64,000 bases of DNA, from NCBI GenBank assembly GCA_050084515.1, contig CM114271.1, forward strand, positions 8,060,001 through 8,124,000, given 5' to 3'. Source of the stretch: Blasia pusilla. Taxonomy: Eukaryota. The notes beneath the pieces are model-generated. The model was not told where the DNA came from, did no database searches, and saw nothing but the letters and a program-made list of their open reading frames with translations. The position numbers and the translations under genes were made by a program. This document shows positions 36,188 through 61,419 of the stretch, piece after piece (the first letter of the stretch is position 1; each line of letters begins with the position of its first letter).

Positions 36188-36603
36188 AGCAACCTAACGG
36201 ATTCCGACGGGTTGCAAATGTCAGATGTCACAAATGGAAAGTTTGGTTGCAAAATTGGGCCCATGCAACCCATCAAAATCCGATGGGTTGCCCTCCACCT
36301 CCCAGAATAGGAGTGGATGTGCAACCCGCCGGAATCCGTTAGGTTGCATAGGCCCTGCCAAGGTCCATGGGCAACCCGTTGGAATCCGACAGGTTGCTCG
36401 ACACACCCCAAAATGTGAGTGGTTGTCCAACCCGTCGGACTCCGACGGGTTGCACAACCACTCTCGGGACAATCCACCCCGGGAATTGTCCTATAGGAAG
36501 GAGTGCCACTGCTCCGAGTCCATGTTCAACCCGTTAGAATCGGATGGGTTGCACATAGACCCTAAAATGGACTGTGCAACACATCAGAGTACGACGGATT
36601 GCA
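36188..36603. repeat. Palindrome array in the intron splitting the MTase-like domain (copy 2)
   Basis: About 7 units, e.g. caacccgtcggactccgacgggttgca at ~36428. Confidence 0.9.
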
Positions 36604-38667: not shown

Positions 38668-39716
38668 ACAACCCATCGGTTTTTGATGGGTTGGGAATAG
38701 ATAGCAACAAAAAAATCAAACAACAGATGTGTGAAACCCATCGGAGTCCGACGGGTTGCACCACTAGCTTCCTCGATGCAATCTGTCGGAAACCGACTGG
38801 TTGCATTTGGGTTGTATCGAGTCGAAGGACATATTTTGAAACCCATAAGAGTCCAAAGGGTTTCACAACCTGTCTACACCACGTTCCTCCTTGCAATCCG
38901 TCAGAAACCGACGGGTTGCATCCGGGTTGCGTTTAGCTATTTCCAAATTAAAAGATTACGTCTTTTGCAACCCGTTGGAGTCCAAAGGGTCGCAAAAGAA
39001 GCACCTTTTAGATTCTATAGCTACTCGTTGGAGGTGGAGTCCGACGGGTTTGCTTCTTGTCGGAGTGTGACGGGTTGCTTTTGGTGCAAAATCCTAAGAA
39101 CCTCTATTGAGAAATTTAATCAGCATCCCATCGGAGTCTGACGGGTTGCATATTCTGCTAAGAAGATGTCCCTACTCTTCCAACCTGTTAGAGTCTGACC
39201 GGTTGCAATACTTCAGTGAAGACATCCTGGTTTGATTGGCGATGCAACCCGTTGGAGTCATACGAGTTGCATATTTGGTAGGAAATGTCTTGGTTTGAGT
39301 GGCCTTGCAATCCGTTGGACTGTGACGGGTTGCATACTCTTTAGGGAAGGTCCTGGTTTGCATGGCTTTCCAACCCGTTGGAGATTGACAAGTTGCAAGG
39401 CTACTCAAACCAAGACTCATTCTGTAAAGAATATGCAACCCGCCGGACTTCGACGGGTTTCAAAGCCAATCAAAGCTGCGTTTCTTCCCTGGAGAATATG
39501 CAACCCGTCGGACTCCAATGGGTTGCCAGGCAACTCAAACCAGTTTGTCTTTGCCTCTGGGAAATGAAACTGCAATCTGTCGGAGTCTGACGGATTGCAT
39601 ATTGGGCAGGGAAGTCTTTCTCTTGCAACCCGTCGGATTCCGAAGGGTTGCCGATCTCGTTAACTAGTATCTTTTTTTATTACAAAAGAACCAACCCGTC
39701 GGAGCCCGACGGGTTG
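38668..39716. repeat. Palindrome array in an upstream intron of the MTase-like gene (copy 2)
   Basis: Roughly 17 units at ~55-65 bp spacing, e.g. tgcaacccgtcggattccgaagggttgc at ~39624. Spacers in 39150-39600 are related to each other. Confidence 0.9.
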
Positions 39717-40886
39717 AAGATGTAACAAATTCGGGAAAAAAAATTCAAGATACTTACGTGTTCATTGAGTGCATGGCCATCTCCACCGTGACCATGTGAT
39801 TTGGGTAGGGATGGAAGACCACCGCCCTCTTGCAAAAATGAGTCTCTAGGGAGTTTGGGCGCTCCGCTGGAAACTGCGACCACTTCAAACTGCAACATGA
39901 ATCCATTTGGGCAGTTTGGGCACTCCGTTGCAAACTTTGACATGAATTTGTGGTTGCCATCCTAGATGAAGAAGTACAAGTTTTGCATCCACTTGTACTA
40001 GGTTCGTGCAACTGCCTTCCGAAACTCTATATCCTTTAGCCTCCAAAATGCATCTGAACTCTCCATGTCTTCCTCAGTTACCAAAGCCTGGGTTCCATGC
40101 TCATCATAAGGCTGAACATAGAAAGAAGGGAAGCTATCCATGTTTCAAGTTTTTGCCACTGACTGCTTCAACTTCTCAATGTCTTCCTTGGATTGAATCT
40201 CTCGAACGTATTCTATCGTTCGGAGTCTGAAGAGAGGAATTATCGGGACATTCGGGCCATCCACCACTGCCATTTGCTTCATAACCTGCGCAAATGTCAA
40301 CATTGTCAATTCCAATTTTCATTACAAATGGAAGTAATGGAATTCAAAGAGAACGTTGGTGCTGACAGTTGGTGTTGACGAAATTCAAAGAGAACGTTGC
40401 TGTTGACGGTAAGAGAACGTTGGTGTTGGTCTTGTGCATTGGACCACTCGACCTCATGGAGGACACATCCTCCATTTTGACACTCTCGATGGGTTGCTGG
40501 GAGGGTTCTTCTTCAATGACCATTGCCTTTCCCTTCCTAGATTTTTCCAATTTGGCTTTCCGATAGGCGGAGTCCTGCCTCTTCTTCTCCTTGATCTCAA
40601 ATTCCTTCCATTTCTTCTCCACCTTCTCCGCCTCTGTGAGCATTTTTGCTTCCCTCTTCACCTCTTGCTTCGCAAGTTTCTCCAGAGGTAGCTTTGCCAC
40701 CATTTCCTGCTTCCTCATTTTGGTTTCCCTCTCGTGCTCTTCAATTTCCTTCCGTACATCTGCGGCCGAGTGTTTTGCGCACCAGAAGATGGAGTTCGGC
40801 CAGGCTTGGGAGAGAAGCTCCCAACCTTTTTTGCTTGGGATTTTTTGCGAGTCATCTTGAAAGTAGTCGAGAAAGATGACACGAAG

Positions 40887-42424
40887 TGTGCGCCCCTTCA
40901 TAAGTGGCTCCCATGTGTGTTAGATACTTTTGGGACTCTAGTTAGGTGAGTAGAAGGAGCTAGAACCGCAATCTGCAATTTAAATGAGATCAAGTGAGGA
41001 GCATCAGGGAAGTAATGAGATCAGGTGAGGAGCCGAGGAGCATCAGGGAAGTAATGAGATCAGCTGAGGAGCTGAGGAGCATCAGGGGAGTAATGAGATC
41101 AGGTGAGGAGCTGAGGAGCATCAGGGAAGTAATGAGATCAGGTGAGGAGCTGAAGAGCATCCAAGGGAAGCTCGAACCAGCTTGAGAAGAAGCAAGCTTG
41201 GGAGATGCTGCTCAAGAGACTTTAGTTGGGACAGGTTCAGAAGTAGATGAGGTAGAAATTTCAGGCAGTAGATGCCTTGGAGTAGATGCTTAGGGGGAGG
41301 TAGATTTGTAGGAAGGTAGGAACCTAGAATGCCAGAGAAGCCCAAGGAAGAAGAGGGCTCTCAGATTCACTTATAAATACTCTGTTGGGTTTGCTTGAAG
41401 GCGGGCATATACATGCTGTTGGCTAGTAGACACTCGATCTCTTGAGCCAAGCTAACCAGCAGAGTTATGTGCTCCCAGATCTAGGTAGTGTGTAGTGTGC
41501 TTGAAGGGTCTGAGACTAAGAAGTTCTCTCATGTACTCTTTGATTTTGTGATACACAAGAGGTAGCCCTGTGAAATGAGTTCACACCATTGCCCTGTATC
41601 TGAGTATGTGCATGATTGAGTGATGAGTTGGGGGAGGGCTTGATGAAGGGAGATTCTTGGAGCTGATTCAACTAATCATTCAAAAGTGCAGGGAGTGGAC
41701 AAGAGGCTGTACCAGTAGAGGGGAGGCAAGCTTGGGTTCCAAGATTGTGCTCCACCAAGGTGTGCTTGGAAAGCTTGCTGTTCTGCCCACCTAAGCTTGG
41801 CCTTTGACACCAATCACATGATTACTTCCAGGGTGTGACAACCTGGACTTCCAGGTCTGGTAAGTGATAAGAGTTAGTGAGTGGAGAGAGAGAGAGGGTC
41901 ATGCTTGAGGTCCTCTATAGGTAGAAGACCATGGGCTCAGACTGTTAAGTCTCCTACTACCTGAACAAGAAGGGAGAACAAAGGATCAGCAAGGTACGAG
42001 GAGAAGAAGAAGGTGATTGCACTACCTGATCGGTTAGGAGTTGGGTGTACTTTAGAGGATGTCCTTGGTACATTCAACTAGTCCAAGGCAGCACATTGGA
42101 GGACCTTATGCTGCCCTGGTCATTCTTGACTGTGATTTCTAAGTAGAGTGTGCTTGTTGGGTTCCACTGGCCACTCCACTCAAAGCACTCAAGAGAAAGG
42201 AAGGAGTTTTGGTTAGTAGGGTGAGGATAGGATTGTGATATTGAAGTGGAGAGAGTTTCTCTAGCCTCTTAAGGTAAAGAGGTGGGGTTTACAGCTGTTA
42301 AGGAGTACATCTTGTAGATCTGATCTTTTGATCTGGCCCTAAGCTCTTACATGGGACCGAACTGGTGGAACTAGCAACATTTTCACCTGGGTTGTGTGCT
42401 GGCCATGTATTACCTGGTGAGACA
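40887..42424 (+). repeat. 5' LTR of Gypsy family A (with four 39-bp tandem units at ~40995-41160)
   Basis: TGTGCGCC...GTGAGACA. Near-identical to the reverse complement of 62502-63991. Followed by the PBS. Confidence 0.93.
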
Positions 42425-42479: not shown

Positions 42480-45400
42480 ATGAGTGAGCGGCATCAAAGA
42501 CATTCAGCAAGGAGTGCACGGAAGGCTGCTGCAGATCACCAAGAAGAGAGAGAAAGAGCTTCCATAGGAGACTCTTTTGTGGGGAGTCCAAGTTCAGCAC
42601 CTGCTATAACAGCCCGGCTGGTTCAATTGGTTCTGCTCAAGCTACCTCAATCAAGATGCCTCCCTCATTTGAATCAAGTACACCAGATTTCGAGGGGATG
42701 GTGGTCAAGATGTGGATGACTGGATGGAACAATACCTAGCAACTTTGGCAGCCAATGATGAAGGGGATGAAGACACAACCAAGAGGTTGTTTAGGTGGGC
42801 TGATTGATGGAGAAGCCTTGCGTTGGTACAATACCTTGGAGGATGGACAGAAAGCTGATTGGCCAAGGTGAAGTCGACATTTGAGCAAGAGTTAAGGGAG
42901 ATTAGGCAGATTCAAGGGTGATGTCACGACTGAATTCTATCAAGATGAAGGCAAGTGACACACTAAGGAGCTACACCAGCGTGTCCAAAGCGGTGATAGG
43001 GAAGCTATCCATAGTACCACCAAAGCAAACCTTCAGTTGGAGTGGTTTATTTCTAATCTACGAGTTGTTGGATTTTGAAGTGAGGAAGGAGATCCTCAAA
43101 CATTAACAGCTGCTGTTGATGTGGCCAAGAGATATGAGAAGTCAGCCCTACTATCAAGCCGCTGGGCAGAGAAGAAGCTGAAGAAGAAGGTCAAGTTTGA
43201 GGACTCTGATGATAGTGATGAGTACTTAGTGGAGGACAGAGAAGAGAAGTCTAGCCATCAGAGAGGTAGAGAGACATATCCATCACAACTCACCAAGGTT
43301 GTGAAGGATGAAATGCAGACCTTAAGGGTAGCCATAGAGGAGGTCAAGGTGCAGATGGCTGATATCAAGAAGAACTGCAAGGCAGTCCCTATGACCCGCA
43401 CTAATATTTGCTGCACCCGATGCAAGAAGGAGGGTCATTTCTCTCATGATTGTCAAGCTGAATGGAGGATGATCCAAGAGACGGAGCTGAACTCTCAAGA
43501 GCTAGAGCTCAGGGACATAGAGTGTCTTTATGCTATTCAACAAGGAGCTCTATGTGTTGATATCAGGGCTAGACCAGGGGTGTCGCGACCCTCATGACCA
43601 AACAAGTGCCAAGCGGAACATCGGAACATTAGCGGGCTCGAACATTAGCATCGGAACATTGGAGATTCGATACCAGTGTTGATTGCAATTTGTATGTGGT
43701 AGTGCATGGCTATGAGTCGTTCATCATAGACTTAGAATGTACGACAAGAGGACAGACAAGGAGTATTTGAGGTGAGAGCTCGTATGTGGATAAGCACCTA
43801 GAACAGGACCTTGTGTTGGATTACACTCGGGCTCGCCCTAGCGTCGGCGGGGCAGATGAAATCTGTCTTGGGGCTTGGGGTGATCTTACTTGTGGCCACA
43901 TAAGTAAACTTAGTGACGCGCCTAAGTCGAATACGAGAGCGACCCAATAGTAGTACGATTTGTGGACCAGGTAAACAGGTGTGATGTTTACTGAGAATGA
44001 GTCGAAAGAGTCTAAGGTTGCACACTTAGTTAGCTTATTTGATAGGTTAGTTCCTTGGAACTAGTCCAGCTTATCGAAGATGAGAGGCTAATAATTCTAA
44101 GTGGGGCAAAGCGACAACTAGAGACTAAGAGGAATTGCGGGTTAGCCACGTAACGCAATTCAATGTCAAGGGGTAGGCTGCCCAGGAGACTTGACATAAT
44201 AAAAGTTTGCGTTGATAAGGGCATCAACCTCTAAAAGAGGGGTGAGTGTCGCGACCCTCATGACCAAACAAGTGCCAAGCGGAACATCGGAACATTAGCG
44301 GGCTCACGCTAAGATGGTTTGCGCGTTGGAGTTGTCTCAAAGAGGAGACAAGAGACTAGACGCGAGCGAGAAGTCGCGTTTCAGATGTGATGGTTGCGAC
44401 TCAGAAACCGGGACCAAACGCGGAATGAGACTTGAAAGAAGTCGAGTCTAGGAAGTGGGTTGCCAAAGGAAAGATCCGGATTTGGAACGCCACTTGCGTT
44501 TGAGAGTTTCCAACTGTATGTATGGCCATAACTTTTAGCGCCAAGATGCGTTTGGAATAAATAAGGGTGCGTTGGAAAGCTTATGGAGAGTCGGTCCAAA
44601 TGCATCAAAGATCGCTGCAAACGCATAAGCAACGGCCGAGATACAACCCGAAAACGACTGTAAGTGGAGTCGGGTTGAGGGCCACAATGAAGGGCCCGAA
44701 CCTCTTTTCCCAAAGGGGAGGGGTTATTGGAGAACCCCAGAAGTACTAGTAAGGGGGAAGGTCTCCGAGAGTGCTTGGAACCCAAACCCCACTTTGGGCG
44801 CCGCGGGGCGGCTCAAGGGCATGGAACGGAACGCGAGTTTGGGCGTTGGGTTGGAAAACCTGCACCAAGTCCATTGAGGCGATTTTAGACATCCCTCTTG
44901 GATTTCACGCCGCGACTCAATTACTTGGGTCTCAGTTCGGAACTCACACGAGGACCGTTGAACAGTTGGGATCGCTAGGCGTGCAAGTGCCGTTTCAGAT
45001 CCCTGGACTAACCAGGAAGTCTGTTCCAAGTCTTGAAGGACTTGCCATGTGTTGGGAGCTAGGAACTAAGGAAGGTTGAGCTTGATGAGACGCCGAGTTG
45101 AGGACTCGGTGGTTTGGAACGCCGGTTGGCCAAACCCGACTAACAAGAGTGCGTGTTTGGGTGCAGATCGGCGATGAGTTCGTGACCTACTGATCGCACG
45201 CTTCCGCAACACTAAAGATTGACGTTCAAGGAGAGTAGGGGCGCGACAAGGGGGTTCAATACTAAGAATCCCTGATGCTTGTTGGGAGTGTGGGGAGGTT
45301 GGAAATATCTCACCTGAGTGCCCACACCGGAGGATGCCTGGGGAGTACATCTTGCTGTGTAGAAATTGCAGGGAAGAGGGGCACAAGGCTTCCAGGTGCC

Positions 45401-45870
45401 CAAAGCCTGTGCAACTTAGAGTATTGCCCCGCTATACCCCAATCCCACCTAGGGAAGAAACAACCCTCAACTGGTCCAACAAGGTAGCAGCAGAGCAGCA
45501 ACCAAGGGACGAGGGCACGACTTCAAATGTTAGATGGATCCAGGACTGTGAAGAGGAGAATGTGTGGAGAGTATCTACCAGGAGGCAAACCAATGAAGAG
45601 AAGGGCAAGGGGCCTGCAAGAGAGGAGATCAGATCAGGTGGAGAAGAGGAGGAAGAAGCTCCAGCCTTTGAGTTGCCTGATGTTACTGAACAAGTGCTAG
45701 CCCACTTGGAAGAACTTCATACCAAGGAAGGAGAGGCCAATACCAAGAAGACTACAATGGTGGTAAGACCCTCTTTGTCCCCTGCAGCCGGAAGGAGTTG
45801 CACTACAACATCATCTTTGGACATTGAGAAGAGGTTAGTGAAGTCACCATTGGGCGTTGTTGAAGGATAA
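42480..45870 (+). pseudogene. gag (frameshifted, interrupted by the family B element)
   Basis: Knuckles CTRCKKEGHFSHDC, CWECGEVGNISPEC and CRNCREEGHKASRC. The frame IRARPG|GSILRIP is restored when 43581-45253 is removed. Confidence 0.85.
43581..45248 (+). mobile_element. Internally deleted LTR retroelement, family B (59-bp 5' LTR stub, ~600 bp internal, PPT, full 3' LTR 44247-45248)
   Basis: TSD AGGGG (43576-43580, 45249-45253). LTR ends TGTCGCG...CGCGACA. PPT AAAAGAGGGGTGAG at 44233-44246. 43581-43639 is identical to the start of the 3' LTR. Confidence 0.9.
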
Positions 45871-45949
45871 TCCAAGGTACCGAAAGCAAGTGTTGGATGC
45901 AAGAAAGACCAAGAGGAGGAAGAGGCTCCCACCTACCATTTCAGAGGTG

Positions 45950-47842
45950 AGATCTGTGAAGTGGAGGATTGGGAGCACTGAGATTGACAAAGTGAGATTG
46001 AAGGGTGTTTGATCACAAGGGTACAAGTGGATGGAGGTTCGTGTGTGAATGTCATGATGGAGCAAACTATTGCTGACTGGTTACACCGTATTCGAGCCTA
46101 CCCCAAAGATATTGAGGATGGCTAACCAAGAGGAAGTGGTACCAAAGTGGGTAAGTTATCTCGGTAGTTACTAGGATGGGAGAGTTGGAGTATAAGTTTG
46201 AACTATGTAGTAATCAGGCTACCCATTCTGCTACATTCCAAGTTTTGTTGGGGAGGCCTTGGTCTGTACAAGGCAGGAGTTTTGGAGGATTGGAAGAAAA
46301 GGAGTTTAGGATTGGTTCAGTAAGGATCCCATGGGGCTTCCAAAGATACCAAGGCGAGACATCAACAAGCTCCATGGGGTACACGATCGAGAGTAAGGAA
46401 GTAGATGAAGAAGAGCAAGCTTCAGATTCTTTGGATGGTGGTGAATGCCTTCAAGACAAAGAATGAAAAAGAGTTTGACTTCAACCAACCAGAGGAAGAG
46501 CATGTGCATGTCAAGGAAGATGAAGAGCCAGAGGACACCACCAAGACTTGGCCTCTTACATCAAATGAAGGAGATCAAACAAGACTAGCTATGGGAAAGA
46601 AGAAGAAGAATGGCCAGAACCCTCTCTCTCTGGGAGAACTTGATGTCCCACTCACCAGTGCATGGGTGCACCGGCAGCTAATGGAGGATCCAGGTATGAA
46701 GGGCTTTCATGAGACCTTTGGAAGAGAGCAAGAGGAGGACCTCTCTCCGCTTTGTAAAAACCAATTCAGTATGAGAAGATGAGTCTTACGCCAGATATGG
46801 AGTTCTATGTAGGGAGGACTATCCAGGAGGTGGAGAAAGAAGCCTACAAGGATTTGTTGCTAGAGTTCAAGGATGTGTTTTCTTGGTCACATCACGACCT
46901 AACTGGAATCTCACCTGAGTATGGAGAACATCGGATAGACTTGAAGGAGGATGCAGTACCCGTTAGGCAAAGGCAATACAGGCTCAATCCAAAGTACTCC
47001 TTGAAAGTGAAGGAGGAGTTGGATAAGCTATTGGAAGCAGGATTTATCTATCCTGTAAAACATAGTGAGTGGGTATCCCCCATTGTGATTGTGCCAAAGA
47101 AGGTGGGAGTTGATGGAATAGCCAAGATCAGAGTTTGTCAAGACTATAGGAAGTTGAATGAGGCTACCAAGAGGGACTTCTACCCGCTGCCCTTCATTGA
47201 TTTCATACTGGACCATGTAGCTGGTCATGCGGTGTACACTTTCTTGGACGGTATGTCGGGGTACTACAGACCTTCATCAGAGTTGGAGACCAGATCTACA
47301 CTACATTCACCATTGATTGGGGGACTTATGCATTTCGTAGGATGCCCTTTGGATTGTGTATTGCTCCAGGTACATTTCAGAGGATCATGAGAGACATTTT
47401 TTATGATTTCTTGAGGCATTTTCTAGAGGTCTTCATCGATGATTTTGCAGTTTTCAGTAAAAGGGAGGAGCATCTACAACATTTGAGGCTTACCTTTGAA
47501 AGATGTAAGGAAGCCAATCTAAAGTTAAACCCAGGAAAGTGCTTCATTGGGATGGAGAGTGGGATACTGTTGGGGCATAGAGTATCAGCCGAGGGGATTG
47601 CTATAGACCTGGATAAAGTGACCACCATCTTGGCTCTCAAAGCACCCACTAGTGTGAAAGAAGTTCGAGGCTTCCTTGGCATGGTTGGTTATTATAGGAG
47701 GTTTATAGAGAGTTATGCTAAGATTGCTCTCCCATTGACCGAGTTGCTGAAGAAGGAGGCTACATTCCACTGGGCAGATCGCCAAGAGGAAGCCTTTAGG
47801 GAGCTCAAGGCAAGGATGGTGAAGGCACCCATGATGGCAGCA
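45950..47842 (+). pseudogene. pol (aspartic protease + reverse transcriptase), frameshifted and truncated
   Basis: VDGGSCVNVM, LLGRPW, SEWVSPIVIVPKK, RVCQDYRKLN, MPFGL, FIDDF and VRGFLGMVGYYRRFI. Confidence 0.92.
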
Positions 47843-48851
47843 CGGGGGCTGGTATTCTGACAGGAGAGAGTAAGAGAGGAGAGGAAGAGAGGAAGAGAGG
47901 AGAGTCTCTCTTAAAAAAAAAAGGCCAAATCCGCCTCCTGTCTTCAAAACTTTTTGACATATTTGAAATTTTTGTTTGCTTTAAAATTCAGGAAATCTTT
48001 AGAAGAGAGTATTTCGTGGTCCACATTTGGCCCTAAAAAAACCTCCTCTTTCTGGGCGAGAAAAAAAGGAGACATCATAAGACCACCCTAAACATTTTTC
48101 CATCACTCTCCATGTGAGCCTAAGTTTCTTAACATTCCCTGTCTCGGTCAACAAAAAGCAGTGCCCTTGGTATTTTTGTTGGAGGACCACCCAGATGGGT
48201 ACCTCTCTTTTTGCAGGGATTGTTGCCTGCATCATGGCCTCCCCTAAATTTCCCCATAACCAACTTTCTGTCGGTTATGAATGGTGTCTGCTCAAGACCA
48301 ACTTTCTGAAATGTGAACAAATCAGATCCTAAGGCTGAGAAACCGAGAAGCTGCACCCCTCCCAACCCGTAAGAAAGCTCACCATAAAAGAGGAAAGATT
48401 TTTAGAAGTGATTTTCTTCCACCCTGGACCCACGACGATCTAACGGGTTGGGAATCCGAAATGGCAATCCGACAGGTAGTAGGAATCCTGCACATCTTAG
48501 ACAAGAAAAGAAGCCTACAACTGGTTGGACGAATGAAGGGGAACAAGCCAAAAGTCAAGAAGCCCGCCACAATGCGCCAGAAGTTGGTCTCACCGGGATA
48601 GAGTCCGATCACTCAAGCAGTCAACCTATCGGAATCCGACAGGTTGCCTGGAAATGGTTAAAAAGTTGCAGTTCTTAAAAAGCAAAAAGTCGGAATCATA
48701 CGGGTTGCAGAATTGTAATTCTGAGTAGCTAAAAGAACACAATCCACAAGTCCAAAAACATATTCGAGAAAACTTTTACAAACACCATTATGGGTTGAAA
48801 AAATCTCGTCCTTTATTACCTCTGAAGGAACCTCGGAAATGTACATTGAAC

Positions 48852-51800
48852 CTAGTCTATGATTTCTTCAGCCTCGTCATCTACAAATTTACTCCTAACT
48901 CTCCTCGGTGACAGTACCAAAGGAATGTCCTGGGATTCAAGTGGCTCCTCTGGCCGATTGTAGACGGGGATCGAAAATGTTGGCGAATTTGAGAGCCTTG
49001 GCCCCCCCCCCTAGGTACACCATAACGGTCCCATGTAACCTGTCTCGAGTCCCACCGCCTTCCTCGGCAGTATACCTTGTACGCTCTGCAATATGACACC
49101 CATCCAGTATCAATATCTCCTCCGTCCCCGGTAATTTCATTATGGCAACCGCACAGGTAGAAGGAATCCAACACGTCTGAGAGAAGAAAAGAAGCCTACG
49201 CCTGCCTTTACGAGTTGAGGGGAAGGTGCCAAGGGAAGAAGCCCGCCAGACTGCCTCTTAAGTTGGACCAACAGGAAAGGGTCGATCAGGCAACTGTCGG
49301 AATCAGACGAGTTGCCTGGAGGTGGTAAAAAGGGTCCAGTGGTCAAAAAGCGAAAAGTTGCAAGGAGGAGAAATCCGACGGGTTGCAGTGGTCATAAAGT
49401 GAAAGTTGCAAGCAGGAGAAATCCGACGGGTTGCAAAATAGAAGTCCGTGGAGTACATAGATGATCACATTCGAAAAGACAAAAAATGATCAGCAAACAT
49501 TTACAAGTACCACCATCGATCGAAAAAATATTCTACTTTATATCATCCGAAAAAAGCTCGGAACTGTACATTTGATCTATTCTATGAAATCTTTTGCCTC
49601 ATTATCAAAAAACTCCCTACTCCAAACGCTGCAGTCAAGCTGGGTCGTTGAGTTCTTTGAACTCACTCGTCATCGTCCGAGAGCTCTTGCAAAATCACTT
49701 TCGGCCTTGCCCTCCCGATTTTGGGAATCGTTGGAAGTGACGATGGAGTCACTACCAAGGGTGGCTCTGGAACCGGAGCTCTCGGCTTCGGTGGAGAGTT
49801 GTACGCCCCAACGAGCCTTTCGTATTCTGCCTTTGCCTCCTTGCAAAGGTCAAACAGTTCCTGCCTTCCCTCGAGGCAGAGAATGTTCCTGCCACTCTGC
49901 CAGGCGCCTTTGATACTTGCCCCTGAAAGTTCCACTAAGTCGAACACCAAGTCACCCGGCCTTGAGCACAGCTCGATGAGCGTTTGCATCAGGGCTGGCG
50001 ACTTTTCCCTTCCTCCCAGAAGTGGGGTACTGTCTTCAATGTAAATTCCCGGGGGGGAATTGTACAAACTATCTAAGCTGTACCCATCTGAGCATGGATT
50101 CACAGGATCCTGGATCTTGAACACCTGGAAATTGTGCTCGGGCGGAACGAAGCAGTAGACGTAGGAGTGGTCCATCTGTAAATTAGCACGTTGGAAACAA
50201 TGTCAGAAACTAAAGAAGTCGCCTTGAGAACATTTTCAATTACTGACTTTGGATCAACATGTCGGAGTCCGACGGGTTGTTTTGTCCCGGACCAACCCGT
50301 CGGGCTCCGTTGTTTTTGTCCGTGAGCAACCCGTCGGAAGGCGACGGGTTGCTGGCCTAGAGCAGACCATGCTCGCCTGAGAGCAACCCGTCGCTATCAG
50401 ACGGGTTGCATCCAAAAACCAAAATCAATTGGGAAAAACCAAAAGCAACTGCAACTCGTCGGGTTCCGACGAGTTACAGGTACACCGCGGTTTTCCGTGT
50501 ATGTGGGAAAGATGCAACCCGTCGAAAACCGATGGGTTGCTCTCAGCCGAGCATGGGCTGCTCTAAGCCAGCAACCCGTCGCCTTCCGACGGTTTGCTCA
50601 CGGACAAAAAAAACCCAGATTGACTCTCATTATACACATCATTAAAATATAATTGAAATTATAGTTCAGGAATTGAGCCTTACCCGAATCTGACTCGTCG
50701 CGGATCGGAGTGGGTACTCGTTTTTAATGATCCACGATTGTGTCCTCCTCCACTTTAGCGACCTCTTGACGCACTGGAGGTTGAAGAGCTCGTCCTCGCT
50801 CCCTCGAGTCAACACCAAGAAGCAGCCCCTATCACTCAGATAGGCGTCTACAAAGGAGAACAAAAGTGCAATCTGGTCATAAGAGAGCGGCACATTCCAC
50901 TCAGGTACCTCGTCCGACGGATTCTCGCCCCAAAGTCGCAACCCCGAGGGCAGATCGGCGATCAAGAGATCCACCGCAACCTCTTCGACCACTCCATTCA
51001 CCGTCCAGGCAGCGTGCCCGTTTCTTTGGAGCTTCCGTCCCAGCGTTGTCAATTTTTCGATGGCTGGTGTCGATGCTTGAGAACTGAAGCTCTTCAACTC
51101 ATCCAGTAAAGGAGTGAACTGAAGGAGGACGCTTGTCCGGGTGGTTGTTTGTCTGTGTCTTCCCAAGGATGATGGGTTGTATTCTCCTTGGGACAACCCG
51201 GGCACCTCTCGCTTCCGCTTCTCCCTAGCGTGGGGACGGCTTGTCGGGGTTTCTATGACCTCACATTCTGGTGGCGTTTTTTTTGCCGAGGACCTGGTCC
51301 AACCCTCTCTCCCCGCTCGTCCGGACGATTCCGCCTCTGGCCTTGAATCTTCAGCCTCTCTTTGGGAAGACTCGGACTCTGAATTTTTCCCTCCCCTTGC
51401 CTTGCCTTTGAGACCCGCTGTGGATTTGTCTTTGGCTGTGCGGACCTTGGAAGCCAACTCAGCTGTCTCGTGGGCCTGCTCTTCTGCATCTCCTCCGAAG
51501 AAGTCTTCAATTTGGACAAAATTGGGGATGTCGTCTTGTCCCGAGGCCACCTTTGCATCATGAAGCACTCGTAAGTCCTTATCCCGCGATGTCTTCAGGG
51601 TCGTTGAAGTCGAGCCAAATGGGGCAATTCTCCACCTCCCAATCGGACATGTCGCCCCATCTCCACGTCGTACATGGAGAATGTCTCGCATCCGGCGGCA
51701 AAGCCCACAATTTCAAGGCTACCGGTAATTTTCCCCACGCACTGCGTTCTTACACCGGACGAGGTACAAGACCATCCGTTGGGCGCTTTTAGTCGAACAG

Positions 51801-52699
51801 AATCGCCGTCTGCTCCTCAGAGATCTCGCTTCTTCTTCGCTTGATCCCATTTGTTCCCCTCTACTTCTTTGTCAAGCTCTTCGAGGGAGGACGCAAACCT
51901 TGAACATGGTCTTGAATCCTGGGTTTTGGTTGGCTTGTCCCGGATGTCGTCGAGCCAAACCTCGAAATCTCCAGAACTTTCAAGGTTTGCTTCGGCGAAT
52001 GGGCTCTAATCTTCGAGCTCGCATGGTAGACCGCCCAAAGACGGACTTCCCGATTACCAACGCGCCCCGTAACGACCATTCGCGTAGCCAATGCGAGATC
52101 ACTGGATCGGACACACCCAGAGGATGGTGTACCGCCCTCTTCTGGGCCTCTGAGCCCTCGAGACTGATTTTCATCAATCGTATCCTCCTAAACTCGCTTA
52201 TCCCGGACAACGCAAACCGATGCACGCAATCCAGCGACACTTTCTCCCCAATCCGACCATGCAGATCTTCATCCCTCTTCCGCTGGCGCTTGATAATCGC
52301 CTTCAGCTCCTTGTAGAACTCCGGACCAAGTTCGGGGTTGAGAATGCTGATGTATGGCTACATCTTGCTCGCTGTGTATTTCCTTGCAGTAGATACTGTA
52401 GCGTGGATGAATTTGGCGCGCTCAGACGCAGATACCTTCTCCCTCCGCTCCAGCTCGGTCTGGCGCTTTTTTCTTGCGGCTGTATCTTCGACCTGCAAAG
52501 TATGGTTATGGCTGCATCTTGAGAAATAAACTTATTTGCCCAAGTTTTCTTCTTAATCTGAGCACCCTTTGCAAGCATCTGATTGACGAGGGCATCGCCC
52601 AAGAACCCCCTGTACTCTCCCGGGTGCGTCGTAAGCACCTTCCTCACCCGATCGCAATCCTGGATCCAGTGGTGGGTGACATTCCCCTCCGATACAATC
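48852..52699 (-). pseudogene. Cargo gene with beta-class N6A/N4C DNA methyltransferase-like domain, copy 3 (MTase part open across intron 50176-50683; upstream frameshifts)
   Basis: VDLLIADLPSG (motif IV-like, 50942-50974), AYLSDRGCFLV, spliced SQIR|MDHSYVY, then EKSPALMQTLIELCSRPGDLVFDLVELSGASIKGAWQSGRNILCLE (motif X/I-like). Last exon ends RVRSKFVDDEAEEIID* (48852-48854). Confidence 0.72.
50258..50598. repeat. Palindrome array in the MTase-domain intron (copy 3)
   Basis: About 7 units, e.g. gcaacccgtcggaaggcgacgggttgc at ~50326. Confidence 0.9.
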
Positions 52700-52715
52700 C
52701 TGCACATCCAAACTC

Positions 52716-53757
52716 AACCCGTCAGGAAATTACATGGGTTCCTGCAACCCGTCGGACTCCGACGGGTCGTCACAGCTCAAGGTCGGATTTTAGCAACGAG
52801 CTAAATGATGCAACCCGTCGGAGTCCGACGGATTGCATTCAGATTTGCTAATGCCTAGTAAGAAAACCGTCGGAGTCCGACGGGTTGCTCGACAGGCCGC
52901 CTTGTGAGGATGTTTTTTGAAGAATGCAACTCGTCGGACTCTGACGAGTTGCTCGAGTGACTGCAGGTTTATAAGGTTTTTTCCCCAAAGCAACCCGTCG
53001 AAGTCCGACGGGTTGCTTGCCTCGAAGCTGTTTTTCATCAAGGCCAACGTCGGAGTCCGACGTGTTGATTTCGGCCAAAAATAGTTTCGGGTTGATTTCA
53101 ACTGACCGTTGGGTCCCGTCGTCCTTTTGACGGCGACGTGCCGGATGTTACGGAAGTCCGGACGTGAAAAATGGCAACCCGTCGGAGTCCGACAGGTTGC
53201 GCGGCTCCGCCATCCTGCGTACATCGCCACGTGCGCGAGCAACCCGTCGGAGACCGACGGGTTGAGCGCCTCCGTCATATTCGGAAAAGAACGCGAGGTA
53301 CCCGCGCAACCCGTCGGAGACCGACATGTTGCGCGCCTCCGCCGTGTTTGGGACGGGAACGGGACGTATCTTGGGCAATCCGTCGGAGACCGTTGGGTTG
53401 CACGCTTCCCTCATCAAGGGTTAAGAACGAGGGCTTCCCGTGCAAGTCGTCGGAGTCTGGCTGGTTGCACCACAAGGCGAGGCCCTTGCGCAACCCGTTG
53501 GAGGGCGACGGGTTGCATGCCTCGCCATCTTTGGGCTAAAAGGCGAGGCACCCGCGGAACTCGTCGGACTCAGACGGTTTGCACGCCTCCGGCATCTTCG
53601 GGCAAGAAGGAGCGGTATCCGAGCAACTCGTCGGAGAGCAACGGGTTGCTCGCTTCGACAATGTTTAGCAGAAGTGTGCAACCCGTCTGATGCCGACGGG
53701 TTGCAGGCTTTGATTAGCTTCGGGAAATTTTTGAGTTACCAGGACTCCGACGGGTTC
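52716..53757. repeat. Intergenic palindrome array between the divergent MTase-like and transposase genes (~16 units, ~50-70 bp period)
   Basis: tgcaacccgtcggactccgacggg (~52743), tgcaacccgtcggagtccgacggattgca (~52809), gcaacccgtcggagtccgacaggttgc (~53174) and others. Confidence 0.92.
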
Positions 53758-53965
53758 CAAGTGTGATGCGCAACCCTCTGCTTCCCAAATCCAGTAACAT
53801 ATTGCAACAGAATTGAATGTGTTACAGAATTGGATCCATTGTGTCAGACAATGTCACCCACCAAATTCATCTTGTCAGTAAAAATCTGTCAGGAGTATCT
53901 GTTTCCTATTCACTATAAATTAAATATTCTCATTCTCAGTCTCCTCCCATTGGAATCTTCTTGGA

Positions 53966-56900
53966 ATGGATAATTATGTTAAGCTCACTTGTGGCAGTCA
54001 TCTGGCGGCCCTTCCTCAATCGGAAATCATTCGACCCCAAGCTCGTGAGTCTTTCATAGTAGTGGATGAAAATTTTCTGTCTGTTCGATTTCTTCTCCAA
54101 ATTGGAACCATCTTTGTATCCAAAGATGTTAGGGTGGACGGTACGGAAGACAAAATAGGTGAGATGGTCTAGCTAGTGACCTCAGACCTTAAAGTATGGA
54201 ATCTCCTACCTCTACCAAATGGTCAATACAGAGTTTACGGCCTGCCCCTGAATTCGTATGTTTCCCAAGTAGACGGTCTAGAATTTCCTAGTGCTCCGAG
54301 CTCTACGTTTGCAACTCCAAGCTCGCAGACCGGCCGACTCCAACTGCGCGACGTAACAATGTTGTTTTTCCTGAAGAGATTCCGGATGTTATCAACCTCA
54401 GTGGATCTGTCGGACACCAATCGGGCCCTCTGTCCGCCTACTCGTTCCTCTTGCGAGTATCAGGCAATAGTTTGCTTTCGTCTCTGCCCTTGAAAATGTT
54501 CAAGCGCATTCTTGTCGACGAGTTTCCGCCCATGTACGATGGTAATTGCATTTTTGAGTTGCCTCCACTTGCTGCTCCTGCTCAAAAGAAGGATGGAGGG
54601 CGCCTGAAGGGTATGGACAAAAAGTCTGATTGTCATCGATGGTGCAGGCTTCAACGGACCAGTGCTTCAATTCCAGATGGTGCTTAGATTGTCTCCCGCC
54701 GCCAATGCGTGGGAGCCTTGGAGTGTAGAAGTCCAGCATGCCTGTATCTAGAGCGCAACGGGCGAGTCAATACGTCGCAATTCCCTCCCAAGAATGCAGA
54801 AACTCCATACGAGGTGAGTGCCACCATACTGCCGGGAGGCCATCGATGTCCTCATTGTCAGGCATCGCCCTTCTGCATTGTCCACGACTTGGGCTCCACG
54901 TCAGAGTATACAAGGCTGGCTGTCCATGTTGGCTCCCACACTCATCCTGTGATCGATGCAATTCAAAGACACATCAAGGAGGATGTGGCGAAGAAAGTAG
55001 CCGAGGTCTACAGAAACTCTCCGGGTTCAAAGCCCGGAGTGATCAAGCTCACAACGGCATCACAAATTTGTGAACAATTGCTTGGAATCCCAAGACAGGG
55101 CGAGATCACGGCAGTTGGGGAGAAACAACTCTGGGAAAATCTCGCATTTCTCGCTGATCCTGAATGCTTTCGGAATTTGCTGCGTCAGATACGAGTTATG
55201 GATGGAAAGACGGCCGAAATGGATGCCATCGCCAGAATCAAGGCCAACTCCAGATTTCCATTCATTCGAGATGGCGTTCATGGGCCAAGGAGGCGAGGAT
55301 CCAGGGCCTATGTCTTCAAAATGTCAACCACAGGTCCGTCGAGTGGCCTCGATCTTATAGATCGAATGAGGGAAGGGGAAGATCTTTACGGGAGCTGGGT
55401 CAGCTTTGATATTTGCTACAGAGTGCCGAACGGATGGTTGACGATGGGTGCTCACGTTTATGACCATGTGGAGAAGGGACTCAAAACTATATTTGTGTGT
55501 GAAGTAAAGGCAGAAGACGTTGGCGGTTTGAAGATGTGTTGGTTACTCTTATTGGAGGTGGTGAAGGAAAACAAAAGGCCACCGAAATTTATGGGTTCAT
55601 GGCGCATACAATGCACAACCTGGGTGGATTGCTATCCGGGAAGTGTTTTGGGGTGAGAGGTTCAACCGGAGAGGAAAGGTCGGATGCTTTCCATTGGCAA
55701 ATACACGACCGGTACACCAAATCTTGCATCAAGGAGAATAAGAGGACAGAGCATGTCACTCTACTCCAACGCGCAAGGACAAAAAACCTTGAAGCGAGCC
55801 ATGGAATTCAGGAAGAACTTCATGGGTGGTGGAGGAAGCATGCGATTGAGGGGAAGTACAAAGAGTTGTGCTCTTGGTTGAGTTGGTGGACTGTACGTAT
55901 GAGACAATGGGGAAACTTCATGCGGCAGGTGAGTTCACTATTTTGTCTTGTCAAGCTCACGCTGAGAATTATTTGTAAAGTTGTAGCTCAGGGTGAGAAG
56001 CGTGGGAATTATATGGATTTCAAACCCAAGAAACCAAGCAAGCTGTCGGATGCGACGGGTTGCCCGAGTGTGCAACCCGACGGAAACCGACGGGTTGCAT
56101 CCAGATGTTTGGTGCAACCCGAGTGTGCAACCCGTGGGGCCCCGACGGGTCACAGAGTTGTTCATGGGATGCCTCGGCCTTGCAACCTGTCAGGTTGTGA
56201 CGGGTTGTAGTAGGTGGGTTGAAGGTTACAACACGTCGGGACCCGACGGGTCGCAGGGTCGTTCATGGGATGCCTCGGGCCTGCAACCCGTCTGGTTCCG
56301 ACAGGTCGCTTATTTCTTTGACTCCTAAGTTATTTTCGTTCCCTTCTAACATTGCCGTCGTTGCAGGGATTGAACGTTCATGAAAATGCCCTCTTCCCCA
56401 ACACAAGTGGAGCAGAAAGTGTTCATTCCTCTTGGAGGTCGTCACAAGCATGCCAACGAATTTCACTTGTGGAGGCATGCCAACAAGACCAGGCAAGAGC
56501 AATGCTACAGTCTGCAGCATCCCACATCTTTCTCACAAAAGGCATAACAAAAGGAAAAGGGCCGTCGATCTACGAGCTCTATGTCGTAATTTGTGAGATC
56601 CGGGTGATGAAAAATGTATGTCGAAGCGTTCAACTGGTGCGTAGCTAGAACTCCACTCGATCAAGACGTACACATAGGTGGGGATATTCGTGGGCGGGTT
56701 TCAAGATGTCCCATACAGATGGTGGTAGAGCAGTCTGAACGAGACTCGTGGAGACCAGATAAGTATCTTAACTTCAGGCAGGTGAAGAGGCAGCATCGAG
56801 GAACGAATCTGGTGATTGGTTTGGATGAGGAAATTACACCACCCAGGTTTTAGGGGACCCCGGACCCATCCCAAATCCGTGATGGAGTTACTTCTCCAAA

Positions 56901-57866
56901 ATCAGTGAATGTTTTATTTCAAAAGCCCTCCGTTGGTGGAAGTTTGCGACATCCTGTCACTGGGGTGGTTCAACAATATGGGATTCTGGTAATGGAGGTG
57001 GATTGCAACCTGAAACCGTGGCATATATCTCGGAGCAACCCAGGACGTGGACCCACCTGCAGGGCAGGATCTTATGGCATTAGGAGAGCATGCGGCACTT
57101 TCCTAAATAAGAACTGTACAAGGACTGGACGACCTCTGCCTGGGTTTTGGGGACTCAAAACCTTTGATCGTTTCACGAGGATCGGGGATCAATTGAAGTA
57201 CTTCTTCTGCCCAAATGAATCTTGCGCTTTCCGGAAGTCTTATCTGGCTGCCATTGGAGCTCCCGGGAATACCCCCAAGATTTGGCCCATCGCCGCAGGC
57301 ACAAACTGCACTCAAGACGAAGTGGACAATCTTACAAGTGCCGGTTTCAGACTCGTAGACGGGGGAAGTTCTGAGCATGTTCGCATTACAGAGACCTTTG
57401 CATTTTGTATTGAACCCAAGATTGATGTCAACATGTACCCGGAGAAGGTGTATGATCTCAATCCATTATTTCTATTTGAGTCTAGAAATGGGGTGAAGAG
57501 AAACAGAATGTGCAGGCCAACGGTGGAGAGAGCAAAGCGAATTGCATTGCAGCTCGGGAGGCAAAAATGGAGATCATCGCCACGAAAGATGTCTTGAGTG
57601 GCAATGGAATAGGAAGGATGTATTGGGTCAGGAACAACACTGTAAATTCAAGTGTCACAGGGGTGTATGTGGTGCACATCTGTTGCTTTCCCACATGTTC
57701 ATGTGATGACTTTGTCCAAAGAGAGACAAGTGGCAAAAGGTATTTCCCTTGTAAGCACATGTACTATGTGTTGCTGGTAGTTTTAAGAGAGTCGGAGGTA
57801 GGAGTAGGAATCCACCAACCAGTGTCCCTCAAAGAAGTTCGAAGTATTTTAAACAAACCACTTTGA
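53966..57866 (+). pseudogene. MULE/Mutator-type transposase (Zn-binding N-terminal domain, DDE, SWIM), copy 3; intron 55929-56366
   Basis: ATG MDNYVKLTCGSH conserved with copy 2. CVGALECRSPAC...CPHC...HVGSHTHP, SFDICYRV, FMA(D), DAFHW, NTSGAESVH and SWIM CSCDDF...PCKHMYYV. Many 1-nt frameshifts and a few stops. Confidence 0.85.
56050..56310. repeat. Palindrome array in the transposase intron (copy 3)
   Basis: About 6 units, e.g. tgcaacccgacggaaaccgacgggttgca at ~56071. Confidence 0.88.
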
Positions 57867-58264
57867 GGATGCAAAGGAGGTTTTAGATTGTACTTTTATT
57901 TTTTTCTCAACCTTCACTTCGAGCTTGAACTCGATTCAGCCCCGGGAAAATGGTAGATTATTTCGAGACCTTGGATGGAAAAAGTGATTGGTTCCACACT
58001 TATGATTCCACAGATTTTTCAGTTTTCTAAATTTTGTGCAATTTGCAACTCGTCGGACTCAGAGGGGTTGCCAAAATATGGAAGAGGAAAAAAAAACTGT
58101 GGGATCTGCTTAATATATGAACAAAAAAGTGCAAAAAATTTCAAACAAAAACTTTCCTCTCTTCAACCCAACGGAAACTCTCTTCAAAAAAGAGTATCTA
58201 TTTCGGTTGACCCTAGTTTCCTCTCTCCTCTCTCCTCTCTTCCTCTCTTCCTCTCCTCTTACCG

Positions 58265-58475
58265 AGTGCAGTTCCCAAGGGACTCAAGGACATACTGTGC
58301 AAGAGTGCCCCCTTCAACGAGATTTACGTTGGGTACAAGAAGACCCATCTATGGAGGAGGGATGGTATCAAGCAGATCAGTGGGAGGGATGCTACGCAGT
58401 TCAGGAAATTTCACGGACTAGTGCTCCTCGAAGCTGGATTCTCCAATATGTACCACATGGGTATGGAGAGCAGAG
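58265..58475 (+). pseudogene. Short Gypsy gag-like fragment (zinc-knuckle region)
   Basis: TQGHTVQECPLQRDLRWVQE...EGCYAVQE resembles KKEGHFSHDCQAEWRMIQE...ECLYAIQQ of the family A gag. Confidence 0.5.
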
Positions 58476-58524
58476 GCTAGAGTTCGGATGTTCCGCTTGG
58501 CGCTCGTTTGGTTATGAGGGTCAT

Positions 58525-61190
58525 TGCTCTTGCCTAGTCTTGTTGGCATGCCTCAACGAGAGATATTTTTTGACATGTTTGTGATGATCTCTAGGAGGAA
58601 TGGACATTCTCAGCTCCACTTGTGTTGGGGCAAAGGGCATTTTTGTGAATGTTCAGTCCCTACACTAGAAAAATTATCAATTGATGGAGGGAACGCTAGG
58701 TGTTCAACACTTACAAAATGTCAAAATCCAACAAGTTGCAAGTTCTTTAAATCTTAAGTCCTTGTTGGATGTCAACATTCATATTGCAACCCATCGGAAT
58801 CGGATGGATTGCAAGCAAGCTACAAGAATAGGGAACAAAATCTAACTACAACTCGTCGGATTCCGATGGGATGCAAGAAGAATTTAGTTGAAAACAAGAA
58901 GCAACCCGTCAATAAGAAGTATGAAGAACATAAGAACTTGCAACCAGTCAGATTGCGAGTAATCTACTTGAGAATACTCTGCTGCAACACGTCAAAATCC
59001 AACGAGTTGCAAGCCGTCGGATTCAAACGAGTTGGAAGATTAAATTTTCAAGATAAGAAGCAACCTGTCGGATTCTGACGGGTTGCAGCCTAAACTTTTT
59101 CGCAAAAAAAGTTACTTGCAATCCGTCAGATTCGTACAAGTTGCAACCTCACACTTGGAGAAAATGTTGAACTCACCTACCGCATAAAGTTTCCCCATTG
59201 CCTCATACGGATGGTCCACCAACTGAGCCAGGAACACAACTCTTTGTATTTCCCCTCAATTGCATGCGTGATGGTTACTCTTACTGTAGGTGGTGAAGGA
59301 AAACAAAAGACCTCCTCCTGAAATATATGGCTTCATGGTGGACAATGCCCAACTGGGATGGATTGTTATCACGGAAGTGTTCTGGGGTGGGGGAAGTTCA
59401 ACTAGAAAGGGAAAGATCCGATGCCTTCTATTGGCAATAGTCTGTGACTCGCTTCACAAAATTATGCATCAAGGAGACTAAGAGAACAGAGCATGTTGCT
59501 CTACTTCAACTTTGCAAGAATAGCAAAACCTTGAAACAAGCCATGGAGTGCCAAGAAGAGCTTCATATGTGGTGGATGACATCTTCAAGCTGCCAATATC
59601 TTCCGCTTTCACCTCACAGACAAAATTGGTTTTGAGATCCTTCTCCACATGGTCGTAAACGTGTGCACCCATGGTCAACCATCCATTTAACACCGTGTAG
59701 CAAATATCAAAGTTAACCTAGCTCCCAAATAGATCTTCTCCCTCCCTCATTCTATAAGTAAGATCTAGGCCGCTAGACGGTCCTGTAGTAGACATTTTGA
59801 AGACATAAGCTCTAGATCCCTTGCCTCCTTGGCCCATCAACTGCCATCTTTGAATGAATGGAAACCATGGGTTGGTCTTGATCTTGGCAATGGCATCCAT
59901 CTCTGCAGTCTTTCCATCAAGTATTTGTATTTGACGCAATAAGTTCCTGAAGCATTCAGGATCAGCCAAGAATGCCAGATTTTCCCATAGTTGTTTCTTC
60001 TCAACTAGTGTGATCTCCCCTTGGCCAAGGATATCCAGCAGTTGTTCACAAATTTATGATGCAGTTGTCAATTTGATCACTCTTGGCTTTTGTCTTGGAG
60101 AGTTTTTGTACACCTCATCCACTTTCTTTGCCACAACCTCCTTGATGTGTCTCTGAATTACACCGGTGACAGGATGAGTGGGAGACCCAACATGAATTGC
60201 CAGCCTAGTGTACTCGGACGTAGAATTATAGTCGTGTACTATGAAAAGAATATAATCTTGACACACTCTTACACAGGAAGGGGAGGCTTGACAATGAGGA
60301 CATTGATGGCCACCCGGCGGTATAGTTGTACCGACGGCGTAAGGATTTTTTGCATTTTTGGGGGGGAATTATGACGTATTCACCACTCCCTTCCACTTGA
60401 GGAAGGGGCATCTTGGACTTATACACTCTAAGGCTCCAACACATTGGTGACGAGACACAAGTCAAGGACCACTTGGGATTGAAGCGCTCGTCCACTGCAG
60501 TCTGCACCATCGGTGATAGTCCGATTTTCGGTCCATACCCTTCAAGCGCCCTCCATCTTTCTTTTGAGCAGGACCGACAAGTGGAGGCAGCTCAAAAATT
60601 CAGTTTCCATCAGATGTTATTGGCAGCTCATCCACGAGAATGTGCTTGAACAGTTTCAAGGGAAGAGATGAAAGCAAAGAATTCCCCGAAATTTGAAGCA
60701 GGATGGAGAAATAAAATTTTGGGTCTGACATGTTTCCAACAGATCCTATGAGATCAACGATACTTGAAATGTCTCCACCTTCAACCGCATTGTTACGAGC
60801 TTGTGAGTTTGGAGTCTATACTGGATCGGCCGAAGCAACCATGCTAAACGTGGAGCTTGGAGCACTGGAAGGTTTTGGACTGTCTTCATGAGTCGGAGTG
60901 GGCCTCAGAGATAGGCCATAAACTCTCAATTATCCATTGGAGTAGGATAAGAGGTTCCACACTTTGGAGCCTCCAATCTCTGATTGAACTATTTCACCAA
61001 TGACGTCATCCGTTCCATCAACCTTGACATCCTTGGATACAAAATTGGTTCCAATCTGGAGCAGAAATCGAAGTGAAAGGAGATGTTCTTCAAAAATTAC
61101 ATGAGTGTCACTAGGTTGGGCTCAAATTATCTCCGATTGAGGAAGGGCCGCTAGATGGCTGCCACATGTGAGCTTCACATAATTGTCCAT
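58525..61190 (-). pseudogene. MULE transposase copy 2, 3'-truncated, with internal micro-inversion 59268-59579
   Basis: MDNYVKLTCGSH start, ADPECFRNLLRQI, NGWLTMGAHVYDHVEK and NTSGAENVHSS; truncated after DxARAM at 58525. Confidence 0.85.
58720..59150. repeat. Palindrome array in the transposase intron (copy 2)
   Basis: About 8 degenerate units, e.g. gcaacctgtcggattctgacgggttgca at ~59060. Confidence 0.85.
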
Positions 61191-61419
61191 TTGGGTTAGA
61201 TCATAGATATGATTTTCCCAGATAGGCGAATAAGAATGAGAATAAGAATGAGAATGTTGAATTTATAGTGAACAGTGTCCGTTTATACTCTAACAGAATA
61301 TCTCTAACATGGACTTGGTAGTTAGGTTGAACCATCGCCAGCTGACTGGACCTGCCAAAGAAGAAGATTCATACATCCTTCTTGATGACATGTGGGGAAA
61401 GATCTACCAAGGATCCTTG

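Follow-up and report, generated by a model that had tools for sequence, protein, structure and literature searches.

The 64,000-nucleotide stretch of the Blasia pusilla genome analysed here (the window; forward-strand positions 8,060,001–8,124,000 of contig CM114271.1, assembly GCA_050084515.1, with all coordinates below counted from its first letter) carries on its minus strand an intron-bearing gene whose product, judged by its sequence, is a METHYLTRANSFERASE homologue: a true, very diverged relative of the beta-class (PF01555-type) amino-methyltransferases. The gene lies in a unit of ~5 kb that occurs twice in the window. We consider it rather probable that it encodes an accessory pseudo-methyltransferase of a bryophyte repeat family, carried by an apparently mobile unit, of beta-class descent and no longer transferring methyl groups. 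Both local copies are damaged members of the repeat family, and neither should be annotated as a DNA methyltransferase gene.

The better preserved copy (copy 1) has the following layout:

50684–51712, minus strand: exon A, a 343-codon stop-to-stop open reading frame (ORF)
50945–50956, minus strand: motif IV equivalent, GAT CTG CCC TCG (D-L-P-S)
50176–50683, minus strand: intron, 508 nt, GT..AG, phase 0, at the same position in copy 2
49666–50175, minus strand: exon B, 170 codons, with its stop codon at 49663–49665
49915–49941, minus strand: motif I equivalent, D-L-V-E-L-S-G-A-S
49870–49872, minus strand: conserved motif II glutamate, E102 of exon B, within ILCLE

The N-terminal half of the methyltransferase-like domain occupies approximately 50684–51046 of exon A (the strand before motif IV, motif IV itself, a CFLVL strand and W..KNE); exon B continues with a motif VIII-like HSYVYCF, the motif X helix (EKSPALMQTLIEL), motif I, motif II and a proline-rich tail with an acidic end. 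All the peptides quoted by the first-pass annotation of this DNA are present on the minus strand, VDLLIADLPSG and AYLSDRGCFLV in the stop-to-stop ORF 50666–51712 and EKSPALMQTLIELCSRPGDLVFDLVELSGASIKGAWQSGRNILCLE in the ORF 49663–50202, which terminates at a stop. Its intron boundaries hold as well when the DNA is read by hand: the last codons of exon A are CAG ATT CGG (to 50684), GTAAGG comes next (50683–50678), the intron closes with ...TTTACAG at 50176, and exon B opens ATG GAC CAC at 50175, leaving the frame open across the junction.

Homology to the beta class is carried by profile comparisons. An alignment of the family matches 12 annotated phage methylases in hhalign with a probability of 98.4% (E 7e-15); the 192 aligned columns reach from motif IV as far as motif II. 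The spliced protein matches a hidden Markov model (HMM) built from 30 IMG/VR phage methylases (the canonical HMM) at 30.0 bits (E 2e-11, Z=1). This second match is a single domain that crosses the exon junction (HMM positions 23–221, protein residues 41–252, junction at 139|140); taken singly, exon A scores 4.3 bits and exon B 21.5 bits. Chance resemblance is ruled out by the hhalign comparison together with 500 shuffles of the spliced protein, whose maximum against the canonical HMM was 2.7 bits. The motif order is permuted, with DLPS in exon A and then EKSPALMQ...DLVELSGAS...ILCLE in exon B, co-linear with the canonical sequences. The earlier proposal of a beta-class homologue with motif IV ahead of motif I is thus borne out by the profile comparison, the spliced match and the order of the motifs.

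Searches with the single exons see less of this. The expected match to Pfam PF01555 is there for exon B (E 4.5e-4, 20.7 bits) but stays below the gathering threshold of 26.7 bits, and exon A gives no PF01555 match in the Pfam search. Against the sequences of solved structures, exon B finds M.RsrI (E 0.019) and DpnA (E 0.11) and exon A nothing relevant; an NCBIfam search gives E 0.067 at best. An AlphaFold2 model of a relative, Riccia P0004, made with 30 canonical sequences added to the alignment, has a core predicted local distance difference test (pLDDT) score of 80–91, and its top Foldseek matches are CcrM (E 9.7e-12), M1.HpyAVI, M.BceJIV, M.MboIIA, the rotifer N4CMT, M.RsrI and M.PvuII. Since canonical methylases were part of the alignment, this resemblance to CcrM is in part circular.

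Relatives of the protein occur outside the window. An exhaustive phmmer search with exon B against 1.84 billion representatives returned 6 proteins at E<=0.001, five of which we regard as real relatives and the sixth, a repeat protein, as spurious. The named relatives are Ceratodon purpureus KAG0605740 (758 aa) and Riccia sorocarpa KAL3696265 (349 aa), the latter entered in UniRef as a DNA methylase N-4/N-6 domain protein. Both window exons are co-linear with the Ceratodon and Riccia proteins (P0001 residues 435–534 for exon A and 585–646 for exon B), which supports the splice of the two exons, and the N-terminal region of the window protein is unrelated to theirs. PF01555 is the best Pfam family for 6 of 6 relatives scanned (the five from phmmer plus P0007, a second Ceratodon protein of one 90%-identity cluster), at 13.6–26.5 bits, all below 26.7. 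The Riccia protein spans PF01555 profile positions 2–212 of 221, has DpnA, CcrM and M.MboIIA as its best PDB sequence matches, and by tblastn matches 123 phage records, where the features under the match, among the rows listed, are almost all annotated DNA methylases.

The family is also repeated in other genomes. The two Ceratodon proteins of the one cluster have locus tags on different chromosomes, and large ENA contigs supply 42 more clusters, at 90% identity, of exon-B-like ORFs. The known occurrence is a moss, a liverwort and these contigs. Some of the ENA clusters have C or H where most members have R (GSCEIS and GSHEIS vs GSREIS), changes that look like CpG decay. In a quick tree the window, Ceratodon and Riccia sequences group together (Shimodaira–Hasegawa-like approximate likelihood-ratio test, SH-aLRT, 96), with the window joined to Ceratodon (SH-aLRT 98), on long branches that make the placement uncertain. 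A word-indexed homologue search returned nothing for exon A and only the query itself for P0004, and no relative turned up when JGI metagenomes were scanned with exon B and with P0013.

The motifs of the family depart from the canonical state in a consistent way. Canonical motif IV reads D-[PLIH]-P-[YF], with Y or F as the fourth residue in 12/12 annotated phage methylases and in 30/30 sequences of the HMM set. The four family sequences that cover this part read DLPS (window), DLSS (copy 2), DAPE (Ceratodon) and DPPT (Riccia), none with an aromatic fourth residue (0/4). The second residue is a different matter: L stands there in 5/12 of the annotated phage methylases (DLP[YF]), DLP is therefore no departure, and what the window motif lacks is the aromatic residue. 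The departure first noted in DLPS accordingly narrows to its last position. Canonical motif I reads D-P-F-x-G-S-G-[ST]-T, with G-x-G in 29/30 canonical sequences; of 48 family proteins retrieved, 41 span motif I and a single one, Riccia P0004, has G-x-G (as G-Y-G). The commonest family string is DLSASTGAS, and the window string, DLVELSGAS, retains the D and the second G and has lost the first. That both motifs depart family-wide, as first proposed, is what these counts show. Copy 2 had been brought in as a witness to this with DLVGLFG, a string we would discount: it is the product of a 4-codon deletion in a copy that also bears in-frame stops, and is therefore by itself no evidence for a family-wide state.

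Against these losses stands a retained set. Conservation reaches at least 90% of the 40 rows for the aspartate of strand 1, the second glycine, one alanine and the glutamate of motif II; D254 and E277 in P0004 numbering correspond to D79 and E102 of window exon B. The motif X lysine has become I in most of the ENA copies (GSREIS).

We propose a bacterial or phage origin for the domain, from DNA amino-methyltransferases of the beta class (PF01555 type, circularly permuted). Its scaffold would then have been retained: motifs in the order IV ... X-I-II, an aspartate closing strand 1, a single cofactor-loop glycine and the glutamate of motif II. Two residues would have been lost throughout the family, namely the aromatic of motif IV, which stacks on the flipped base, and the G-x-G glycine that comes first in the cofactor loop. 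Going by the motifs, such losses would leave a protein that no longer transfers methyl groups, and which may serve its element as a nucleic-acid-binding accessory protein. Loss of catalysis is the most likely outcome, by analogy with inactive paralogues such as METTL14.

Set beside the beta-class enzymes (PF01555; CcrM, M.RsrI, M1.HpyAVI/DpnA, M.MboIIA, M.PvuII and the phage methylases), the window family has the same permuted order, a profile that aligns with theirs, a relative whose modelled fold matches theirs (with canonical enzymes in the alignment), and a common strand-1 aspartate, second loop glycine and motif II glutamate. It differs in having neither the motif IV aromatic nor the first glycine of G-x-G, and the window gene is eukaryotic and intron-bearing, with long unrelated N- and C-terminal extensions.

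The gene belongs to a larger repeated unit. Two co-linear copies, at 34282–38634 and 47844–52704, have 67–81% nucleotide identity over ~5 kb, and coding similarity between them reaches upstream and downstream beyond the methyltransferase-like domain. The parts of the unit outside copy 1 exons A and B, with the ratio of the nonsynonymous (pN) to the synonymous (pS) proportion of differences where given, are:

35637–37594, minus strand: methyltransferase-like region of copy 2, 64–67% amino-acid identity, motif IV DLSS
52058–52704, minus strand: upstream coding blocks in common with copy 2, 65–77% amino-acid identity, pN/pS 0.17–0.24
48852–49123 (copy 1) and 35310–35582 (copy 2), minus strand: conserved coding block 3' of the methyltransferase-like stop, pN/pS 0.44
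47844–48136, no strand assigned: low-coordinate end of the unit, 81% identical to copy 2 34282–34576, with an abrupt start at GGGGGCTGGTATT

The upstream, middle and downstream conserved blocks of the unit have no Pfam match, and an ESM Atlas look-up of the N-terminal block gave uninformative scores of 0.76. The downstream block terminates ...FVDDEAEEIID followed by a stop, has no known domain in Pfam, and may represent either an additional exon or a second, small gene. At the low-coordinate end, copy 1 of the unit starts within the end of a plus-strand RVT_1 ORF (47201–47857, overlapped from 47844). The other end of the unit is obscured by arrays of a palindrome described below, past which the two copies have no similarity.

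Both copies have decayed. Copy 2 keeps the intron at the same codon position with GT..AG ends (CGG|GTAACT ... TTCGTAG|ATC), and carries several in-frame stops, a frameshift near 37040 and the 4-codon deletion in motif I; it is therefore a pseudogene. In copy 1 the domain ORF is still open and the gene is broken upstream of the domain. What is open is a 506-codon spliced ORF from the ATG at 51691 onwards. Compared with copy 2 there are one stop and frame changes near 52460 and near 51590, with exon A out of frame above ~51590 and the upstream blocks divided over two frames with one in-frame stop.

Despite this recent decay, purifying selection was strong while the copies diverged. In the methyltransferase region (243 codons) the nonsynonymous proportion pN is 0.213 and the synonymous proportion pS 0.807 (saturated), giving pN/pS 0.26, and identity by codon position is 0.64–0.80 at the first, 0.72–0.88 at the second and 0.37–0.43 at the third. 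The protein was therefore functional for most of the divergence of the copies. As a separate observation, the proportion of synonymous differences is 0.73–0.86, at or above the saturation value of 0.75 in most coding blocks, whereas the non-coding 300-bp terminal stretch is 81% identical, which suggests either that the copies have come to differ in codon or base composition or that the end of the unit is constrained at the nucleotide level.

Transcripts related to the gene were sought in three RNA runs with a matching species label, which placed 10, 16 and 22 reads on 48500–53000 (48 in total). Most fall on exon B, in the orientation of a minus-strand RNA in the usual stranded library.

Several results weigh against a disabled enzyme carried by a mobile element, and we gather them here. 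No Pfam score, whether of exon B or of the relatives, reaches the gathering cut-off, and an AlphaFold model of Riccia P0004 from the family alignment only failed (pLDDT 39), which leaves for the fold the partly circular match given above. The D and P of motif IV, one motif I glycine and the motif II glutamate survive, and loss of activity is argued from motifs alone; purifying selection would fit an active enzyme too. All 48 RNA reads are 95–99% identical and none reaches 99%, with no splice joint among the 48 reads of the three runs; we read them as transcripts of close paralogues or of another strain. The unit itself yielded neither a transposase nor a terminal inverted repeat or target-site duplication, so mobility is argued from copy number and one sharp boundary. 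Its terminal 13-mer has no inverted copy anywhere in the window, and 89 further window ORFs have no Pfam match except weak ones at chance level. The unit is nonetheless probably mobile, in a window that is rich in repeats (RVT_1, zf-CCHC, two Myb/SANT-like ORFs and a weak SWIM match).

The first-pass annotation had left two outcomes side by side, a catalytically dead protein and an enzyme of altered chemistry. The second would make the family an active methyltransferase with a changed chemistry or substrate (DNA N4-cytosine or N6-adenine in an unusual context, RNA, or a small molecule), and would account naturally for the strong purifying selection on the domain, for the retained motif IV D and P, strand-1 aspartate, second glycine and motif II glutamate, and for Riccia P0004, which is near canonical with DPPT and G-Y-G. 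We consider it unlikely: an aromatic fourth residue is found in 42/42 canonical sequences and 0/4 of the family, G-x-G is lost from all family proteins spanning it except P0004, and the motif X lysine is replaced in most ENA copies. METTL14 (EPPL) and Tetrahymena MTA9 are inactive partners with similar losses. On these motif states we favour the pseudo-enzyme over altered chemistry.

METTL14 and MTA9 are themselves pseudo-enzymes, inactive methyltransferase paralogues, and resemble the window family in keeping an amino-methyltransferase fold under selection while the catalytic and cofactor motifs are lost. The METTL3–METTL14 and MTA1c chains appear among the weaker fold matches of the P0004 model (E 4e-5 to 1.8e-4). 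METTL14 and MTA9 differ in belonging to the MT-A70 subfamily and in being single-copy host genes that work with an active partner, none being known for the window family.

The gene had first been described as an intron-bearing domesticated prokaryotic gene, and a single host gene of this origin that gained an intron is a reading we hold to be very unlikely. The intron with its GT..AG ends kept in both copies, the purifying selection and the annotated proteins in Ceratodon and Riccia would all suit it. Such a gene would not be expected as two diverged copies within 14 kb, both damaged, in a repeated ~5 kb unit whose sharp end meets an RVT_1 ORF amid repeat-rich surroundings; nor would one expect dozens of diverged copies elsewhere, some with substitutions resembling CpG decay, or an N-terminal region of the window protein that has no relationship to those of the Ceratodon and Riccia proteins.

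That the domain belongs to a DIRS1-type tyrosine-recombinase retrotransposon is hardly credible and we rejected it. In its favour, DIRS1-like elements are reported to carry a methyltransferase domain, and an RVT_1 ORF adjoins copy 1. That ORF, however, lies beyond the repeated unit and runs on the other strand; the unit contains neither a reverse transcriptase nor an RNase H or recombinase domain; one would not expect a retroelement to have a spliceosomal-type intron such as the one conserved here; and a review places DIRS elements among plants in green algae only.

The accessory pseudo-methyltransferase that we prefer would stand apart from the PF01555-type proteins described so far in eukaryotes, where this class is rare. 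Marchantia polymorpha DN4MT1a/b and the bdelloid N4CMT are, like the window gene, eukaryotic, intron-bearing and of the same superfamily; DN4MT1 also has the bryophyte lineage in common with it, and the bdelloid N4CMT structure 8s9o is among the fold matches of the P0004 model (E 8.4e-9). According to their published descriptions, DN4MT1 proteins have TSPPY and fall with N4C enzymes of prokaryotes, N4CMT shows activity in E. coli and is said to lack eukaryotic homologues, and a 2025 paper cites the two as independent bacterial acquisitions; both are active writers of N4-methylcytosine derived from bacteria. TSPPY, as so described, sets DN4MT1 apart from the DLPS, DAPE and DPPT of the window family, and no DN4MT1-like protein was among the 6 proteins of the exhaustive phmmer search with exon B. 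The window family differs from both in being multi-copy, under purifying selection, and stripped of the catalytic aromatic and of most of the cofactor loop. We found no description of it in the literature searched, which did not extend to supplementary files. If it is indeed a pseudo-enzyme serving a mobile element, it would represent a new route for recycling restriction–modification hardware in plant genomes and a candidate for element-encoded control of DNA methylation.

The non-coding DNA of the unit holds a second component, a CpG-rich palindrome of ~27 bp (GCAACCCGTCGG-NNN-CCGACGGGTTGC) in clustered arrays across the window. Its 12-mer GCAACCCGTCGG occurs 75 times at <=1 mismatch vs 0.05 expected, in these places:

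52744–53758, no strand assigned: palindrome array upstream of the gene in copy 1, with its copy 2 equivalent at 38748–39717
50269–50597, 36204–36453, 49375–49434, 1614–2248, 56052–56294, 58045–59086 and 61669–62164, no strand assigned: other palindrome clusters

Each of the two methyltransferase-like copies has clusters on its upstream side, within its intron and on its downstream side, and a second repeat family of the window carries them as well. In the copy 1 intron, palindrome units make up a foldback with 104-nt arms (50309–50412 and 50511–50614) that are 90% complementary and 98 nt apart, which looks like an insertion of the miniature inverted-repeat transposable element (MITE) type or a long hairpin. 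Rfam has no family match in the window, the palindromes included. Possible identities for the palindromes are subterminal protein-binding repeats, a MITE family and small-RNA hairpins.

It is tempting to join the two components, and we do so as a speculation that we rate quite unlikely: that a disabled or re-targeted methyltransferase of bryophyte mobile elements has become a sequence-specific reader of its own CpG-rich 27-bp palindrome arrays, either protecting them against cytosine methylation by the host (anti-silencing) or helping in transposition as an accessory protein. Binding of the protein to the palindromes is pure conjecture. VANC proteins, anti-silencing factors encoded by the VANDAL (Mutator-like) transposons of Arabidopsis, are comparable solely in their layout: the element encodes an accessory protein, and its non-coding DNA holds arrays of a short motif. 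They have no relationship to the window protein in sequence or fold. Were the palindrome reader real, it would be a third, independent and functionally different eukaryotic use of PF01555 enzymes beside DN4MT1 and N4CMT.

The second repeat family just mentioned lies at 2–4262, 54517–58264 and 59579–61191 (74–83% identity). It has the same palindrome clusters and long plus-strand ORFs without a Pfam match except a weak SWIM zinc finger (57486–57863, E 0.0046), and is a candidate partner element bearing a transposase. An inverted pair of ~1.5 kb with 94% identity (40887–42424 and 62502–63991) is the youngest repeat of the window. The RVT_1 ORF at the boundary of the unit is part of a fragment resembling the gag-pol of a long terminal repeat (LTR) retrotransposon (45223–47857, plus strand; zf-CCHC at 45223–45867, RVT_1 at 47201–47857), which stops where the repeated unit starts; no RNase H or integrase was found beyond it in the Pfam scan of the window ORFs. 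Elsewhere, two adjacent plus-strand ORFs at 19452–20099 and 20761–21393 encode Myb/SANT-like domains (PF13837, E 9e-12 and 1e-7) and sit in a tandem duplication (19552–19889 vs 20801–21141).

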